Origin: Candidatus Dormiibacterota bacterium
Lineage (GTDB): Bacteria; Chloroflexota; Dormibacteria; Aeolococcales; Aeolococcaceae
DNA length: 64,000 bases
Assembly: GCA_963791435.1 (NCBI GenBank)
Contig: CAWBSL010000001.1
Location: 1,553,817-1,617,816 of the forward strand
Direction of reading: 5' to 3'
Under the pieces are notes generated by a model. The model searched no databases, was not told where the DNA came from, and saw only the letters and a list, made by a program, of their open reading frames with translations. Positions 23,131-63,335 of the stretch are shown piece after piece. The first letter of the stretch is position 1. Each line of letters starts with the position of its first letter. The translations under genes were made by a program, and so were the position numbers.

Positions 23131-23834
23131 GTGACGACGCCACCGGCAACACGAGACGTGCATTTCCCGTCGCGAGGCTCCACCTTCGGCGCCTCCTGGC
23201 GTTGCCCGACGGCGACGGACCGCACCCCGGCGTCGTGGTCATTCACGAGGCATTCGGTCTCAACGCCAACATCCGAGACATCGCCAGGCGGTTCGCGAGC
23301 GAGGGCTATGCGGCGCTTGCCGTCGACCTCTTCACCGATCACAGCCGGGCCGTCTGCATGGCGCAACTCATGCGGTCGATGCTCACCGGTCGCGAGCCTG
23401 CATCGATCCAGGACCTTGCTGCCTCGCTCGACTATCTGAGTGGGTTGCCCGAGGTCGACGGAGAACGCGTGGGTGCCATCGGGTTTTGCATGGGCGGCGG
23501 CTTCGCAATCGCGTGGGGTCGCCGGGACCGCCGCCTGCGCGCGATCGCGCCCTTCTACGGCACCAATCCGCGCCCCGTTGAGGCGATCCGCCGCATGTGT
23601 CCTGTCGTGGGCAGTTACCCGGGCAAGGACTTCACCGCGCGCTCCGGTCGCAGGCTCGACAAGCATCTCGCCGAGATCGGCGTCGCGCGCGACATCAAGG
23701 TCTACCCGGGCGCGCGCCACTCGTTCTTCAACGACACGGGCAAGCTGTATGACGCCGAAGCCGCGACGGACGCGTGGCAACGGACTCTCGACTTCTTTGC
23801 CGAGCACGTGCGAACAGTGCGCGCACCGCAGTGA
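23131..23834 (+). pseudogene. dienelactone hydrolase family protein, interrupted by a 1-nt deletion-type frameshift near 23190-23200
   Basis: The frame starting at GTG 23131 gives VTTPPATRDVHFPSRGSTFGA. The downstream frame gives LALPDGDGPHPGVVVIHEAFG...GFCMGG...H (catalytic triad region). Restoring one base (gcctcctg to gcctacctg) yields the canonical ...STFGAYLALPDG.... Confidence 0.7.
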
Positions 23835-30394: not shown

Positions 30395-31630
30395 CCAGTG
30401 CTGACGGTTCGCGACTTCCTCATGCCCGATCTCGGCGAGGGGCTCACCGAGGGAGAGATCAATCGCTGGCTCGTGGCCGAAGGCGATGTCGTGGTTGTGG
30501 ATCAGCCGATCGCCGAGATCACCACCGAGAAAGCCGTGGTGGAGGTGCCGACGCCGTTCGCCGGACGAGTGGCCGCGCTGCACGGCACGGAGGGTCAGAG
30601 CATCGCCGTGGGCACACCGCTGATCAGCATCGAGGTCGCGGCTGCTCCCTCCGAGGGTGCGTCGGGCAACGTGCTGGTCGGGTACGGGACGAGTGAGTCG
30701 GCGCCGAGAGCGCGGAGGAGTCTCACGCCGGCGCCGTCGACTGCCGGTGCGGCCGGGCAGGCGTCCGCATCGCCGCCGGCGTCTCCGCTGGTGCGGCGTC
30801 TCGCCGCGGAGCTGAGCATCGACCTCAGCACGGTCGCCGGCAGTGGCCCGGGCGGGATGGTGACCAGGGCCGACCTCGAGCAGGTCGCCTCTCGCGAGGC
30901 TGCCGGCGCGGGTTCCGAGACGGCGCCGACATCCGAAGGGGCCGTTCGTATCCCGCTGACCGGCGTGGACCGGATCGCCGCGGAACGGCTCACACGGTCG
31001 CACCACGATGCCCCGAGCGCGTCCGCATGGCTCAGCGCCGACGCGACCCGTCTCATGGAGCTGCGCGCCGAGCTCCCCGCCGGATCGACCGATCCGTCCG
31101 TGACGCCCTTCGCCATCATCCTGCGGCTCACCACTGTCGCATTGCGGAAGTTCCCGCGGCTCAACGCCCACTTCGACACCGAGACGAACGAGGTCGTGCG
31201 TTTCACGCCGATCCATCTCGGGGTTGCGGTGCAGACGGACCGTGGGCTCGTTGTCGCAGTGATTCGCGACGCTCAGAAGAAGTCGCTGCGCGGCATCGCC
31301 GACGAGTTGCAGCGTCTTGCCGGCGCCGCGCGAGATGGCTCCATCGACGCGGCCGAGCTCCGCGGCAGCACGTTCACCGTGTCCAACTTCGGCGCGTTCG
31401 GCGTCGACGGCGGTACGGCGATCATCAATCCGCCGGAAGCGGCGATCCTCGGTGTCGGCCGGATCTCCACGCGGCCCTGGGTCATCGACGACGAGGTGGT
31501 GCCCCGCTCGGTCGTGGAACTGTCGCTCGTCTTCGATCACCGCGTCGCGGACGGCGGTGTCGCCGGAGGCTTCATCCGGCACCTCGCGAATCTCATCGAA
31601 ACACCCGACGAGGCGATGACAGATGACTGA
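30395..31630 (+). CDS. dihydrolipoamide acyltransferase E2 component
   Basis: Lipoyl domain (MPDLGEGLTEGEI..W....GD.V..DQP.AEITTEKAVVEVP), Ala/Pro-rich linker, and a catalytic domain ending DHRVADGG. The GTG at 30395 or the ATG at 30422 could be the start. Confidence 0.88.
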   Translation, partial: PVLTVRDFLMPDLGEGLTEGEINRWLVAEGDVVVVDQPIAEITTEKAVVEVPTPFAGRVAALHGTEGQSIAVGTPLISIEVAAAPSEGASGNVLVGYGTSESAPRARRSLTPAPSTAGAAGQASASPPASPLVRRLAAELSIDLSTVAGSGPGGMVTRADLEQVASREAAGAGSETAPTSEGAVRIPLTGVDRIAAERLTRSHHDAPSASAWLSADATRLMELRAELPAGSTDPSVTPFAIILRLTTVALRKFPRLNAHFDTETNEVVRFTPIHLGVAVQTDRGLVVAVIRDAQKKSLRGIADELQRLAGAARDGSIDAAELRGSTFTVSNFGAFGVDGGTAIINPPEAAILGVGRISTRPWVIDDEVVPRSVVELSLVFDHRVADGGVAGGFIRHLANLIETPDEAMTDD

Positions 31631-36973: not shown

Positions 36974-38074
36974 ATGGTTCAGGTAGCCGAGGTAGCCGTG
37001 CCCGTGCTCGAGGGCACCGACCACGTCGAGTTGTGGGTGGGGAATGCGCGCCAGGCCGCGTACCACTACCGCAAGGCCTTCGGATTCGACGTCATCGCGT
37101 ACGCCGGGCCGGAGACGGGCATCCGCGACCGGGCCAGCTACGTCCTCCAGCAGGGCAAGGTCCGCCTCGTGCTCACGGCGCCGCTGCAACCCGAGGGCGA
37201 CATCGCCGATCACCTGAGGCTTCACGGTGATGGCGTCCGCACGATCGCGCTCCGCGTCGCCGATGCCACCGCCGCATATGAGGCCGCCACCGCCCGTGGC
37301 GCGCGCAGCGTCGCCGAGCCGAGCAGGGCGGAGGACGAACACGGTGTCGTGACCTCGGCATCGATCGCCACGTTCGGGGACACCGTGCACACCTTCGTCG
37401 AGCGCGATGAGTATTCCGGTGTCTTCTGGCCGGGGTACCGCGCCGACAACCGCAGCGGCGGCGGTGTGGGGCTTCGCTTCATCGATCACACGGTGGGCAA
37501 CGTCGACACCGGCAAGATGGACGACTGGATCTCGTTCTATTCCGAGGTGTTCGGGTTCACCGTCTTCCAGGAATTCGACGAGAAGGACATCGCCACGCAG
37601 TACAGCGCGCTCCGCTCGAAGGTCGCGCGCGACCCGCGGACGCAGATCACGATGCCCATCAACGAGCCGCACGTCGGCCTCAAGAAGTCGCAGATCCAGG
37701 AATACCTCGACTACTACCGAGGCAGCGGCATTCAGCACATCGCGGTGCACACGGACGACATCGTCAGCACCGTCTCGGACATGCGCGATCGCGGGGTCGA
37801 ATTCCTCACCGCCCCGGGCGCCTACTACGACGCGCTGGGCGATCGCGCCGCCGGCATCAGCGAGGACCTCGACCGCCTGCGCTCCCTGAACATCCTCATC
37901 GACCGCGATGACGACGGCTACCTGCTGCAGATCTTCACGCGCCCAGTCGGGGACCGACCGACGCTCTTCTTCGAAGTGATCCAGCGCAAGGGCTGCAAAG
38001 GATTCGGCAAAGGAAATTTCAAAGCCCTGTTCGAGAGCATCGAGCGCGAGCAAGCTGAACGGGGCAACCTCTAG
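36974..38074 (+). CDS. hppD: 4-hydroxyphenylpyruvate dioxygenase
   Basis: Colinear with Streptomyces HppD, including C-terminal [46 protein letters not shown]. Divergent from paaA, with only ~19 bp between the chosen starts. Confidence 0.9.
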
Positions 38075-38115
38075 TCACTGATGTTCGCCGTCGAAGGTCG
38101 GCACAGAGGGTGTAA

Positions 38116-38234
38116 GGCGAGAGGGGACGGGCGGAACCCAGCGAATTTGGCCGCTCCCGAACGAGTGCGACAATCGGCTTGCGCGAGCGAGGGAGCGGAC
38201 AAGCTGAGCATGGTGCCGCCCGTCCCCTCTCGCC
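38116..38234. repeat. palindromic REP/MITE-like element, copy A (19-bp perfect terminal inverted repeat ggcgagaggggacgggcgg / ccgcccgtcccctctcgcc, inner IR ccgctccc/gggagcgg, core gcgacaatcggcttgcgcg)
   Basis: Seen directly in the sequence, lying between the convergent 3' ends of hppD and the Mop gene. Homologous core to copy B at 61509-61623. Confidence 0.7.
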
Positions 38235-38259: not shown

Positions 38260-38456
38260 CTACTCGACGGCGAGCATCACGTCGGACGCCTTCACGATCA
38301 CGATCACGTCGCTGCCGGGCTTGATGCCGAGCTCGTCCACGGCGTCCACGGTGATCGCGGCTGTCATTGACATGCCGTTCACCACGACCGACACGTTGGC
38401 CGTGGCGGCACCGCGCGTGATCTGTCCACCCGACCGGGGAGCTTGTTGCGCGCGCT
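38260..38456 (-). pseudogene. TOBE/Mop (molybdopterin-binding) single-domain protein, interrupted by 1-nt deletion-type frameshift near 38407-38420
   Basis: GGGGAAGG RBS, then the ATG at 38456 gives MKISARNKLPGRVD. It shifts into the frame giving QITRGAATANVSVVVNGMSMTAAITVDAVDELGIKPGSDVIVIVKASDVMLAVE. Restoring one C (gtggacCagatc) gives a canonical 68-aa Mop protein. Confidence 0.65.
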
Positions 38457-38474
38457 GATTTTCATTGCCTTCCC

Positions 38475-38486
38475 CCGTGATCTGGC
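38475..38486. promoter_or_regulatory. perfect 12-bp palindrome ggcgatatcgcc upstream of Mop gene / divergent from small ORF
   Basis: Seen in the sequence. Position is consistent with an operator. Confidence 0.25.
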
Positions 38487-38618
38487 GATATCGCCCCAAC
38501 TCTAGCCCACGTCAAGAAGATGTGGCCGCGCAGGATCGAACGCGTCGAACGGAGCAACCGATGTGCGATGATGTTCGGGCGGCGTGCTGCTTCGGCATGG
38601 CGGAAGGGGGTTTGGTAC

Positions 38619-58119: not shown

Positions 58120-58853
58120 CGGAAGAGATCCAGCTCCGAGGGCCGCACCAGCTCCTGTCCGGATCCGGGCACGCCTTCCAGGTCGCCAAGTCCCTGGACG
58201 ACCACCACCGGGACGCGCCGCGTTTTGCCCATCACCAGCTCCGCGGCCGCCGCGAGCTCGTCCGCGATCGCCACCACCGTTGCCTGCAACGGCATCCCGA
58301 AGTCATCCGGCTGTCCGCGGTAGTCGAGCATCGCGGGAATCCCCGCCACGCCGAGCGCGACATTGACGAGTCCCATCCGCCAGGCGCGGCCGAACGTGTC
58401 GCTGACGATCACACCGACGCGGACCCCGGAGAGCGCCTCGACCCGGTCGCGTAGCACTCGCGCGCTGGCGTCACAGTCCACCGGGAGCAGGCAGACGTCG
58501 TCCGTGCCGTCCATGTTGGACCGATCGACGCCTGCATTCGCGCAGACGAATCCCTGGTGCGTCTCGACGATGAGGACGCGGTCGGCACGGACGATACGGA
58601 CCGTCTCGTCGAGCACCACCTGGACCATTCGTGCGTCGGCATCGAGGCCCACCGCCAGCGTCCGTGCCTGCTCGGACGGCGTCACCTCCGAGAGGCGCCG
58701 AATCCTCCCCTCGGCCTTGGAGACGACCTTCTGGGCGATCACGACGGCGTCGCCGTCGTGCAGCGTTCCGGAGTGCTCGACGATCAGCGCGGCCAGGTCG
58801 TCACCCGGGTGGATCTCCGGCAGACCCTCGACGCCGCGAAGCTCGAGGTTCAC
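58116..58853 (-). CDS. cofE: coenzyme F420-0:L-glutamate ligase, single-domain form
   Basis: ...GDDLAALI...DGDAVVIAQKVVSKAEGR...CANAGVD.SN... 245 aa, so it lacks the C-terminal nitroreductase-like domain of actinobacterial FbiB. ATGA overlap with the cofD start. Confidence 0.88.
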   Translation of the reverse strand: MNLELRGVEGLPEIHPGDDLAALIVEHSGTLHDGDAVVIAQKVVSKAEGRIRRLSEVTPSEQARTLAVGLDADARMVQVVLDETVRIVRADRVLIVETHQGFVCANAGVDRSNMDGTDDVCLLPVDCDASARVLRDRVEALSGVRVGVIVSDTFGRAWRMGLVNVALGVAGIPAMLDYRGQPDDFGMPLQATVVAIADELAAAAELVMGKTRRVPVVVVQGLGDLEGVPGSGQELVRPSELDLFR

Positions 58854-61018: not shown

Positions 61019-61477
61019 ATGACCACGACCGTCACAAGCGTCGCCGAGTTGACCGCGTTGACCGGCAGGCATCTGGGCTACTCCGAGTGGCGCGAGATCA
61101 CGCAGGAGCAGGTCAACACCTTCGCCGACGCGACCGACGATCATCAATGGATTCACGTCGACGCGGCACGTGCGGCGTCCGGTCCTTTTGGAACGACGAT
61201 CGCGCACGGGTTCCTCACGCTGTCGCTGCTCGTGCCGATGTGGAGCGAGATCCTCCGCTACGACGGCGTGCGACTCGGCATCAACTATGGCCTGAACAGG
61301 GTGCGGTTTCCCTCACCTGTGCCAGTCGGTTCGAAGATCCGCGCTGGTGCCACGCTCGTCTCCGTTGAAACAGCGGCGGACGGTAGCCTGCAGGTCGTGG
61401 TCGACTTCGTTGTCGAGCGCGAGGGCGCGGACAAGCCGTGTTGCATCGCACAGGGTCTGTACCGCTTTTACGGCTGA
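61019..61477 (+). CDS. MaoC-family dehydratase (hotdog)
   Basis: FADATDDHQWIHVDAARAA.GPFGTTIAHGFLT. Confidence 0.8.
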   Translation: MTTTVTSVAELTALTGRHLGYSEWREITQEQVNTFADATDDHQWIHVDAARAASGPFGTTIAHGFLTLSLLVPMWSEILRYDGVRLGINYGLNRVRFPSPVPVGSKIRAGATLVSVETAADGSLQVVVDFVVEREGADKPCCIAQGLYRFYG

Positions 61478-61508
61478 TTCCTCAAAGAGGGCAGAGCGCG
61501 CCGCGGAT

Positions 61509-61623
61509 CAGGAGGGGTGACCCGCGCCAGCGCTCAGCTTGCCCGCTCCCTCCTTCGCGCAAGCAAATTGTCGCGCTCTCTCGGGAGCGGTCAAATTCGC
61601 CGTGGTGCGGGTCACCCCTCCTG
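61509..61623. repeat. palindromic REP/MITE-like element, copy B (17-bp perfect terminal inverted repeat caggaggggtgacccgc / gcgggtcacccctcctg, inner IR cccgctccc/gggagcgg, core cgcgcaagcaaattgtcgcgc)
   Basis: Between the convergent 3' ends of the MaoC gene and the acyl-CoA synthetase. The reverse complement of its interior aligns with copy A (cgcgcaagcNNattgtcgc conserved). Confidence 0.7.
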
Positions 61624-61649
61624 CTCCGCTGGGTCACCACGTGGTTAGA

Positions 61650-63335
<1,686 letters not shown>

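Follow-up and report, generated by a model that had tools for sequence, protein, structure and literature searches.

Two genes of the window, i.e. the whole 64-kb stretch of DNA analysed here, converge on a long palindrome that lies between their 3' ends, as was originally predicted. One encodes a MaoC-like dehydratase and the other an AMP-binding acyl-CoA synthetase. This palindrome, hereafter copy B, has a relative elsewhere in the window, copy A, placed between an HPPD-like dioxygenase gene and a TOBE-domain gene. The better-folding strand, which we call the top strand, is the plus strand of the window in copy A and the minus strand in copy B. The features are as follows.

61019–61477, plus strand: MaoC-like dehydratase gene (PF01575, E 1.5e-26), its stop codon 25 nt from the hairpin.
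61650–63335, minus strand: AMP-binding acyl-CoA synthetase gene (PF00501 and PF13193), convergent with the MaoC gene.
61503–61629, minus strand: whole hairpin of copy B, read on its top strand.
61603–61629, minus strand: 5' arm of the closing stem P1, a B-type arm (GGAGCAGGAGGGGTGACCCGC) with its perfect 17 nt at 61607–61623.
61503–61529, minus strand: 3' arm of P1, with its perfect 17 nt at 61509–61525.
61532–61600, minus strand: conserved 69-nt core, GCGAATTTG...CAAGCTGAGC, defined by alignment and pattern matches.
61596–61600, minus strand: 5' half of the junction loop J1, GCGAA, with its partner CTGAGC at 61532–61537; invariant or nearly so in alignments A2, A3 and A4.
61583–61590, minus strand: 5' arm of the inner stem P3, CCGCTCCC, with its partner GGGAGCGG at 61543–61550.
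61557–61576, minus strand: apical hairpin GCGCGACAATTTGCTTGCGC, with GA..GA internal-loop residues on both sides.
61508–61633, no strand assigned: segment of 126 nt absent from the orthologous junction of locus L047, with a 3-nt direct repeat TGA at its bounds.
38116–38234, plus strand: copy A, of the canonical subtype, with its core at 38141–38209.
38100–38115, plus strand: conserved left flank of canonical copies, GGCACAGAGGGTGTAA, present at copy A.
36974–38074, plus strand: HPPD-like dioxygenase gene (glyoxalase and HPPD domains), upstream of copy A.
38260–38499, minus strand: TOBE-domain gene (PF03459), convergent on copy A.

The synthetase of the window is 100% identical to protein P0001, several of its near relatives carry the NCBI name Candidatus Dormibacteria, and the synthetase/MaoC locus is also found on ENA contig ERZ25039468:contig_40566.

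The original prediction described 61509–61623 as a second, inverted copy of the element at 38116–38234, with the same nested inner repeat and core. The pairwise alignment of copy A against the reverse complement of copy B agrees on all these points. The 69-nt cores (38141–38209 and 61532–61600) differ at 9 positions by hand count, i.e. they are 87% identical, and the nested inverted repeat CCGCTCCC/GGGAGCGG lies within the part common to both. The outer arms have little common sequence apart from a GAGGGG motif, and each pair is self-complementary. By a repeat finder, the arms of copy B are 27 nt long (61503–61529 and 61603–61629, 93% complementary) and those of copy A 23 nt (38116–38138 and 38212–38234, 96% complementary), with 73 nt between the arms in both cases. 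The predicted 17-bp perfect terminal inverted repeats need rewording: the 17-bp pairing of copy B is indeed perfect (on the plus strand caggaggggtgacccgc, 61509–61525, with gcgggtcacccctcctg, 61607–61623), but these are not terminal repeats of the family. They belong instead to a closing helix whose sequence is specific to the locus.

Two patterns drawn from the core have two exact matches each in the 64-kb window, where shuffles lead one to expect 0.01 and 0.00. With its filters off, a covariance model found no third copy in the window; it matched copy A with 144 bits and copy B (61502–61629) with 123.9 bits on the minus strand versus 50.7 bits on the plus strand. Fold prediction gives one long hairpin for each copy, of -81 to -85 kcal/mol as RNA with z-scores of -8 to -10 (copy B: -83.4 kcal/mol, z -9.3) and of -46 to -51 kcal/mol as DNA with z-scores of -6.6 to -9.6. 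Copy B is without the canonical left and right flanks. It is nevertheless a true member of the family, with a divergent subtype of the closing helix. The window holds other inverted repeats, at 30428–30520, 23313–23468 and 58498–58594, with arms of 15–18 nt and spacers of 59–120 nt, and their sequences are unrelated to the hairpin family.

An exact core pattern of 19 bases, searched in one genome for each species of bacteria and archaea, gave 46 loci. True copies were found at 38 of these, all in metagenome-assembled genomes (MAGs) of Candidatus Dormibacterota; the other 8, in other phyla, are without the remainder of the element. A scan of metagenomes with the apical motif gave at least 120 loci, and by our reading about 80 of the matches listed are family members. 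Public genomes and metagenomes together hold at least 115 distinct copies; those taken from genomes all belong to MAGs of Candidatus Dormibacterota, and the rest are from metagenome contigs. The copy number looks low: the 64-kb window has 2, and no MAG gave more than about 8 matches to the exact pattern. Similarity searches of plasmids, phages and IMG/VR viral contigs gave no match, nor did blastn against 5,426 E. coli genomes. No sequence of the window matches Rfam 15 at the gathering threshold: the best sub-threshold match is MIR1437 (37 bits versus a threshold of 168), and all matches of this kind are to plant microRNA precursors, a generic similarity between long hairpins. Our literature search found no description of such a repeat in Candidatus Dormibacterota. 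The hairpin family is an undescribed dispersed structured repeat, found so far, among genome-derived copies, only in Candidatus Dormibacterota.

The hairpin is about 125 nt long (123–127 nt), and its core has 69 nt in 104 of the 115 copies listed. On the top strand, the closing stem P1 of 20–27 bp is outermost. Inside it come a small internal loop and a GC/GC clamp, followed by J1 (5' GCGAA, 3' CUGAGC), P2 (UUUG/CAAG), P3 (CCGCUCCC/GGGAGCGG), a 6x6 loop GAnnGA/GAnnGA and finally the apical hairpin GCGCGA-CAAUCUGC-UUGCGC, whose pairs 55–60/69–74 are invariant and include one fixed G-U. Canonical copies have the left flank GGCACAGAGGGTGTAA and a right flank (..ACCACAGAGCG). J1, the GA dinucleotides beside the apical stem and the apical hairpin itself are constant across subtypes, and J1 and the GA loops could form tandem sheared G-A pairs resembling a K-turn. 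By eye, we found no pairing between the flanks and the apical loop. A likeness to the hammerhead core (CUGA...GAA) was dropped, as the motif does not fit and Rfam gives no match.

We aligned 46 copies to the model and compared them with 500 shuffles and with slid controls. Paired cells make up 97.8% of the total, against 36–51% in the slid controls, and double-sided changes occur at 20 of the 21 pairs of P1; none of the 500 shuffles reached the observed values. Among 43 diverse copies most positions of P1 show at least three pair types (for example AU 15, UA 15, GC 6 and CG 5). The sequence of P1 drifts from locus to locus and its complementarity is kept throughout. The original prediction had opposed a mobile or selected structural element to a chance palindrome, and its selected structural element is strongly supported: there are at least 115 distinct copies, the core is almost invariant, and nearly every pair of the closing stem shows compensatory double changes.

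The inner stems covary as well. P2 changes from UUUG/CAAG to CCGG/CCGG in D-type copies, which also have a different P3. In B-type copies P3 changes from CCGCUCCC/GGGAGCGG to CAGCGCCC/GGGCGCUG; relatives have the covarying pair CAGCGCCC/GGGCGCTG in addition to other pairs, and in locus L150 P3 is swapped for GCGGUUCGGC/GCCGAACCGC. All of these variants adopt one common fold. A large C-type subfamily carries AGCGACC in place of the 5' arm of P3, which leaves this stem weak. The P1 of copy B (GGAGCAGGAGGGGTGACCCGC) recurs at the synthetase/MaoC junction in L053, L061 and L088, and similar arms are found in several further metagenome loci. Copies with B-type arms mostly carry the CAGCGCCC/GGGCGCUG version of P3, and copy B of the window combines a B-type P1 with the canonical P3. 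The different arm types align by eye at roughly half their positions, as expected of divergence accompanied by compensation. We had considered that the unique arms of copy B were those of a local hairpin into which the core had been inserted, and discarded this because B-type arms recur at the orthologous junction. One copy (L172, reverse strand) is a chimera: its left arm is of the C type, its right arm is canonical, and only 15 of their 27 positions pair. This implies recombination between subtypes.

The two strands of the hairpin are not equivalent. The top strand has 133 G-U cells versus 8 A-C cells, and 43 versus 8 once the two fixed G-U pairs are set aside. Among 86 non-redundant copies, 71 have a top strand that folds more stably than the bottom one, and the mean advantage is 4.5 kcal/mol. 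In P1 taken alone the asymmetry between G-T and A-C is weaker (66 versus 43). The internal loops are non-complementary, and purine-rich on this same strand, in all subtypes. Together, the excess of G-U, the stability of the top strand and the purine-rich loops point to a single-stranded functional form. Complementary arms could also persist through template switching at the DNA level, a sort of palindrome correction free of any selection on RNA, but such a process cannot account for persistent non-complementary loops and G-U pairs.

Copies are intergenic and occur in either orientation. According to the crude GC3-based gene caller on which our junction statistics rest, 49% of the junctions with an element are convergent, versus 18% of the remaining junctions of those loci (odds ratio 4.4, p 4e-8), and the convergent junctions divide into 35 with the element and 101 without. 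When both neighbours lie within 200 nt (44 junctions), 31 junctions are convergent, 5 tandem with the top strand in sense, 5 tandem with it in antisense, and 3 divergent. The nearest gene is usually on the strand opposite to the better-folding one: at the 3' side of the top strand the median distance to the stop codon of the opposite-strand gene is 32 nt, and at the 5' side the median distance to the same-strand gene is 54–92 nt. Five doublets, spread over three junctions, are all divergent ('< >'), and no convergent doublet was found. The 20 neighbouring gene families, of metabolic, envelope or regulatory function, are unrelated to one another and include no transposase. We therefore rejected a functional tie to the neighbours, which include the HPPD-like dioxygenase, the TOBE-domain protein, an aminotransferase, an L,D-transpeptidase, a kynureninase, a tryptophan dioxygenase, a DNA ligase and a thiolase, among others.

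A GC-rich hairpin between convergent 3' ends that folds on both strands recalls bidirectional intrinsic terminators. Yet, neither strand has a U-tract after the hairpin, the tails reading CGCCAGACC... on one strand and CGCCTTACACCC... on the other, and a terminator scan calls none at copy A or B. Hence, the hairpin is not a canonical intrinsic terminator. It also differs from such terminators by its length of about 125 nt, by its conserved core and by its absence from most convergent junctions.

We found no conserved sigma-70-type promoter upstream of the hairpin. A sigma-54 promoter in the left flank was considered for its TGGCAC and fitting spacing, and abandoned since the -12 element is GT and not GC, the flanks of C-type copies do not fit, and transcription would start within the covarying stem. 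The core itself holds sigma-70-like boxes on its top strand (TTGACC, 16 nt, GACAAT; from 61594 to 61567 on the minus strand in copy B, score 9/12, and at about 38147–38174 in copy A), which are aimed at the convergent gene. They are the main AT-rich blocks conserved in the core, in a genome with 67% GC. In D-type copies the TTTG within them becomes CCGG with compensation on the other arm, so that a structural role is more probable than one as promoter. At a single orthologous junction (L065, L091, L138, L139, L148, L165, L169 and L027, 945–1073 in the last), GGATTCAGCAAGG..ATGGCAC precedes the left flank, and some of the copies there have a Shine-Dalgarno-like box and a mini-ORF of five codons ending 2 nt before the hairpin. 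This left-flank mini-ORF (ATG GCA CAA CGG GTG TAA) was not retained as a feature of the family, as we saw it at this junction only.

The orthologous synthetase/MaoC junctions differ widely in what they carry (identities are those of the synthetase).

Window and L052: 100% identity; element present.
L053: 88% identity; element inverted along with its flanks.
L088: full copy, solo arm and duplicated synthetase 3' end.
L055: 86% identity; a single solo arm, with a triplicated MaoC 3' end.
L047/L048: 91% identity; element absent.
L050: 87% identity; element absent.
L051: 85% identity; element absent.

The short spacer of L047 might have been taken for a virgin insertion site. However, it retains TCCGCGG, the outermost bases of the right arm that form the hairpin base in filled sites, and for this reason we discard that possibility and read it as a deletion. 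In L049 (11712–12653, synthetase 92% identical), the place of the element is taken by a luciferase-like monooxygenase gene. The region about 1–7 kb past the MaoC gene shows conserved synteny in L047–L052, with genes of F420 biosynthesis (cofC, F420 ligase and cofD) and for an F420H2-dependent quinone reductase and a luciferase-like oxidoreductase. Compared with L047–L051, L052 (1465–9112) has many short or split gene calls where its relatives are intact (an AA_permease of 121 + 227 aa, a fragmented DeoR region), which could be frameshift errors of long reads or real pseudogenes.

Similar changes are seen at other junctions. At the HPPD-like/TOBE junction the element has one orientation in the window, L076 and L135 and the other in L008, L020, L030, L068 and L075. 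The junction between a DUF6812 gene and a membrane-protein gene has the element in both orientations, as doublets and as partial copies, along with a tandem duplication of 52 nt. The 3' end of an adjacent gene is duplicated beside the element at three unrelated junctions (L037, about 2790–2915; L055, 4005–4212; and L088, on the reverse strand about 150 nt upstream of the element); the duplicated units are 52 nt in two copies, TCAGACGTAA in three and CTTTTCCGTCTGA in two, with solo arms between some of them. Flank duplications elsewhere measure 10 to 52 nt, and with such varying sizes these are no fixed target-site duplication. CACAGAG-like motifs on both flanks were also considered as a target-site duplication and rejected, because the two sides do not covary. 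In seven loci (L021, L053, L061, L075, L104, L153 and L164) the sequence stops in or beside the element. This is a true contig end in L053 and maybe a locus end in the others, and would suggest that the repeat breaks short-read assemblies.

Arm identity averages 0.81 at the same junction in different MAGs, 0.77 at different junctions of the same MAG and 0.72 otherwise. From this order we conclude that inheritance is mainly vertical, with divergence in place and some exchange within genomes. Judging from these comparisons, the hairpin family is old and mostly vertically inherited, but its palindrome is recombinogenic, having been inverted, doubled, truncated or deleted at the same junction. The mobility that the original prediction allowed for is therefore borne out only in part: copies of the element lie at no fewer than 20 unrelated junctions and are rearranged at orthologous ones, but the element has no consistent target-site duplication, adjoining transposase or clean virgin site.

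How does this family compare with known repeats? ERIC elements are intergenic, occur in either orientation in tens of copies, are kept at orthologous sites and have been proposed to form an RNA hairpin in co-transcribed mRNA. No transposase is known for them. ERIC or IRU elements are imperfect palindromes of about 127 bp in Enterobacteriaceae and Vibrio (Hulton 1991, Sharples & Lloyd 1990, Wilson & Sharp 2006, De Gregorio 2005). The hairpin family shares nearly all of this, being an intergenic imperfect palindrome of about 125 nt with a conserved central inverted repeat, found in both orientations and in tens of copies and retained at orthologous sites. Yet, it has no homology to ERIC (none of the E. 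coli genomes matched), its host is a Dormibacterota and not an enterobacterium or Vibrio, its closing stem is hypervariable with full compensation, and its loops are GA-rich and invariant. REPINs and REP-BIMEs, which go with RAYT transposases, resemble it in other respects: they are long extragenic hairpins with compensatory changes, vertical persistence, doublets or clusters, and a proposed single-stranded stage. However, a REPIN consists of two highly conserved terminal REPs in inverted orientation with a less conserved spacer (PMC3116915), and because the hairpin family has the reverse pattern, with a conserved centre and variable ends, it falls outside this definition; its copy number is also much lower, and no RAYT turned up among the 20 neighbouring gene families. 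The integron attC site likewise has the opposite pattern, i.e. conserved R/L boxes at the ends and a variable centre, and in contrast to integron cassettes the neighbours of the hairpin are core metabolic genes in conserved synteny.

Correia and NEMIS elements are palindromic intergenic repeats that form RNA hairpins, and the Correia ones are substrates of RNase III. They and other MITEs (about 100–150 bp) thus look like the hairpin family, but MITEs have terminal inverted repeats common to all copies and target-site duplications of fixed length. Here the arms differ across the at least 115 copies, each pairing with its own partner, and copy B has only the 3-nt TGA repeat; on both counts the family fails to qualify as a MITE. 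With structured RNA motifs of the Rfam type it shares conserved loops, covarying helices and fixed G-U pairs, although no Rfam family reaches its gathering score. Overall, by its size, intergenic position, either orientation, persistence and compensatory changes, the hairpin family conforms to the ERIC and REP/REPIN class, a known kind of element. Noteworthy are its extensive covariation and its invariant GA-rich core.

Our best reading is that this is an ERIC/REP-like dispersed structured repeat that works as a single-stranded hairpin, probably in RNA, at 3' ends. More precisely, we give about an even chance to the hairpin being a folded single-strand element, most likely of RNA, at the 3' ends of converging transcripts. 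RNA as the active form and the 3'-end function are what we infer here. Transcripts leaving the flanking genes would fold into a very stable stem-loop that would mark and insulate their 3' ends. It could hinder read-through and 3' exonucleases, and might also be a target of RNase III or of a protein reading the conserved loops. Several points count against this reading. Neither strand has a U-tract after the hairpin, the nearest gene is usually on the strand opposite to the better-folding one, the asymmetry within P1 is weak, and template switching at the DNA level could also keep the arms complementary. Moreover, the better-folding strand is evenly divided in tight tandem contexts, with 5 cases in sense and 5 in antisense, and a simple barrier hairpin would leave the near-invariance of the core sequence unexplained. 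A bolder version would make the family a phylum-specific class of structured RNA rather than a selfish repeat, its tandem-GA (K-turn-like) and apical loops being read by a dedicated protein or RNA partner, its helix serving as a processing platform (e.g. for RNase III), and its placement at convergent ends controlling 3' ends or antisense interference. This bolder version is possible, and we hold it only tentatively.

The main rival to RNA is a non-autonomous element of the REPIN/REP kind, in which a hairpin of single-stranded DNA is moved by a single-copy HUH transposase (RAYT or IS200-like) encoded elsewhere. It would fit an extragenic, strand-asymmetric long hairpin that persists vertically, shows no target-site duplication and forms divergent doublets at three junctions, and REPINs have been described with the same hairpin and compensatory changes (PMC3116915). 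The short related motifs that flank the hairpin, GGCAC... to its left and ..CCACAGAGCG to its right, each at a different distance, also speak for it. We nevertheless consider it unlikely, since conservation is reversed, the centre being invariant and the ends variable, the 20 neighbouring gene families include no transposase, the copy number looks low, and arms of the same genome are only 0.77 identical on average, which gives no sign of a recent burst. An independent small-RNA gene comes third: a multicopy family with its own promoter, expressing the top strand toward the 3' end of the convergent neighbour and acting in trans or as a cis-antisense. The RNA-like evolution of loops and helices, the better folding of the top strand, its short 3' distance to the opposite stop codon and larger upstream gap, the divergent orientation of all doublets and the 5 tight tandem contexts where the top strand is antisense to both neighbours are compatible with such a gene. 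But the candidate promoters fail as described above, from the missing sigma-70-type to the sigma-54 -24 box (TGGCAC) with its wrong -12 and its start inside the covarying stem, and a perfect helix of 20–27 bp is unusual for a stable small RNA, all of which makes this account rather improbable.

Explanations based on double-stranded DNA fare worse. The palindrome might be a protein-binding or cruciform site, or a portable promoter, as the 9/12 score of the TTGACC, 16 nt, GACAAT match and its place in the main AT-rich conserved blocks could suggest. Duplex DNA leaves the G-U asymmetry and the compensated arms unexplained, and the compensated change of the -35-like TTTG in D-type copies indicates a structural role, so that we regard this as very unlikely. 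Least probable of all, to the point of being hardly credible, is a classical MITE with terminal inverted repeats and target-site duplication mobilised by a DDE transposase. The element is small, palindromic, intergenic and multicopy, and one close relative is missing 126 nt between TGA bounds. But arms are not common to copies, flanking direct repeats are not consistent, the 'empty' site still contains the hairpin base and looks like a deletion, and no parent insertion sequence or transposase was seen among the 20 neighbouring gene families.

The reading as a folded single strand, most likely RNA, at 3' ends thus remains the one we favour. In the libraries searched, we found neither a repeat nor an RNA motif described for Candidatus Dormibacterota, an uncultured phylum that abounds in soil and permafrost. 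The hairpin family has a well-defined structure with unusually rich covariation, ready to be submitted as an RNA or repeat model, and can be used as a taxon-specific marker. As a case study, it shows that the arms of a long palindrome can diverge completely and still match each other, and as a recurrent site of local rearrangement it matters for the comparison and annotation of MAGs. Should it prove to be a dedicated class of structured RNA, this uncultured phylum would be seen to handle its 3' ends with a new RNA-based system. More generally, if the hairpin acts as RNA, it would bear on 3'-end formation in high-GC bacteria without canonical U-tract terminators.
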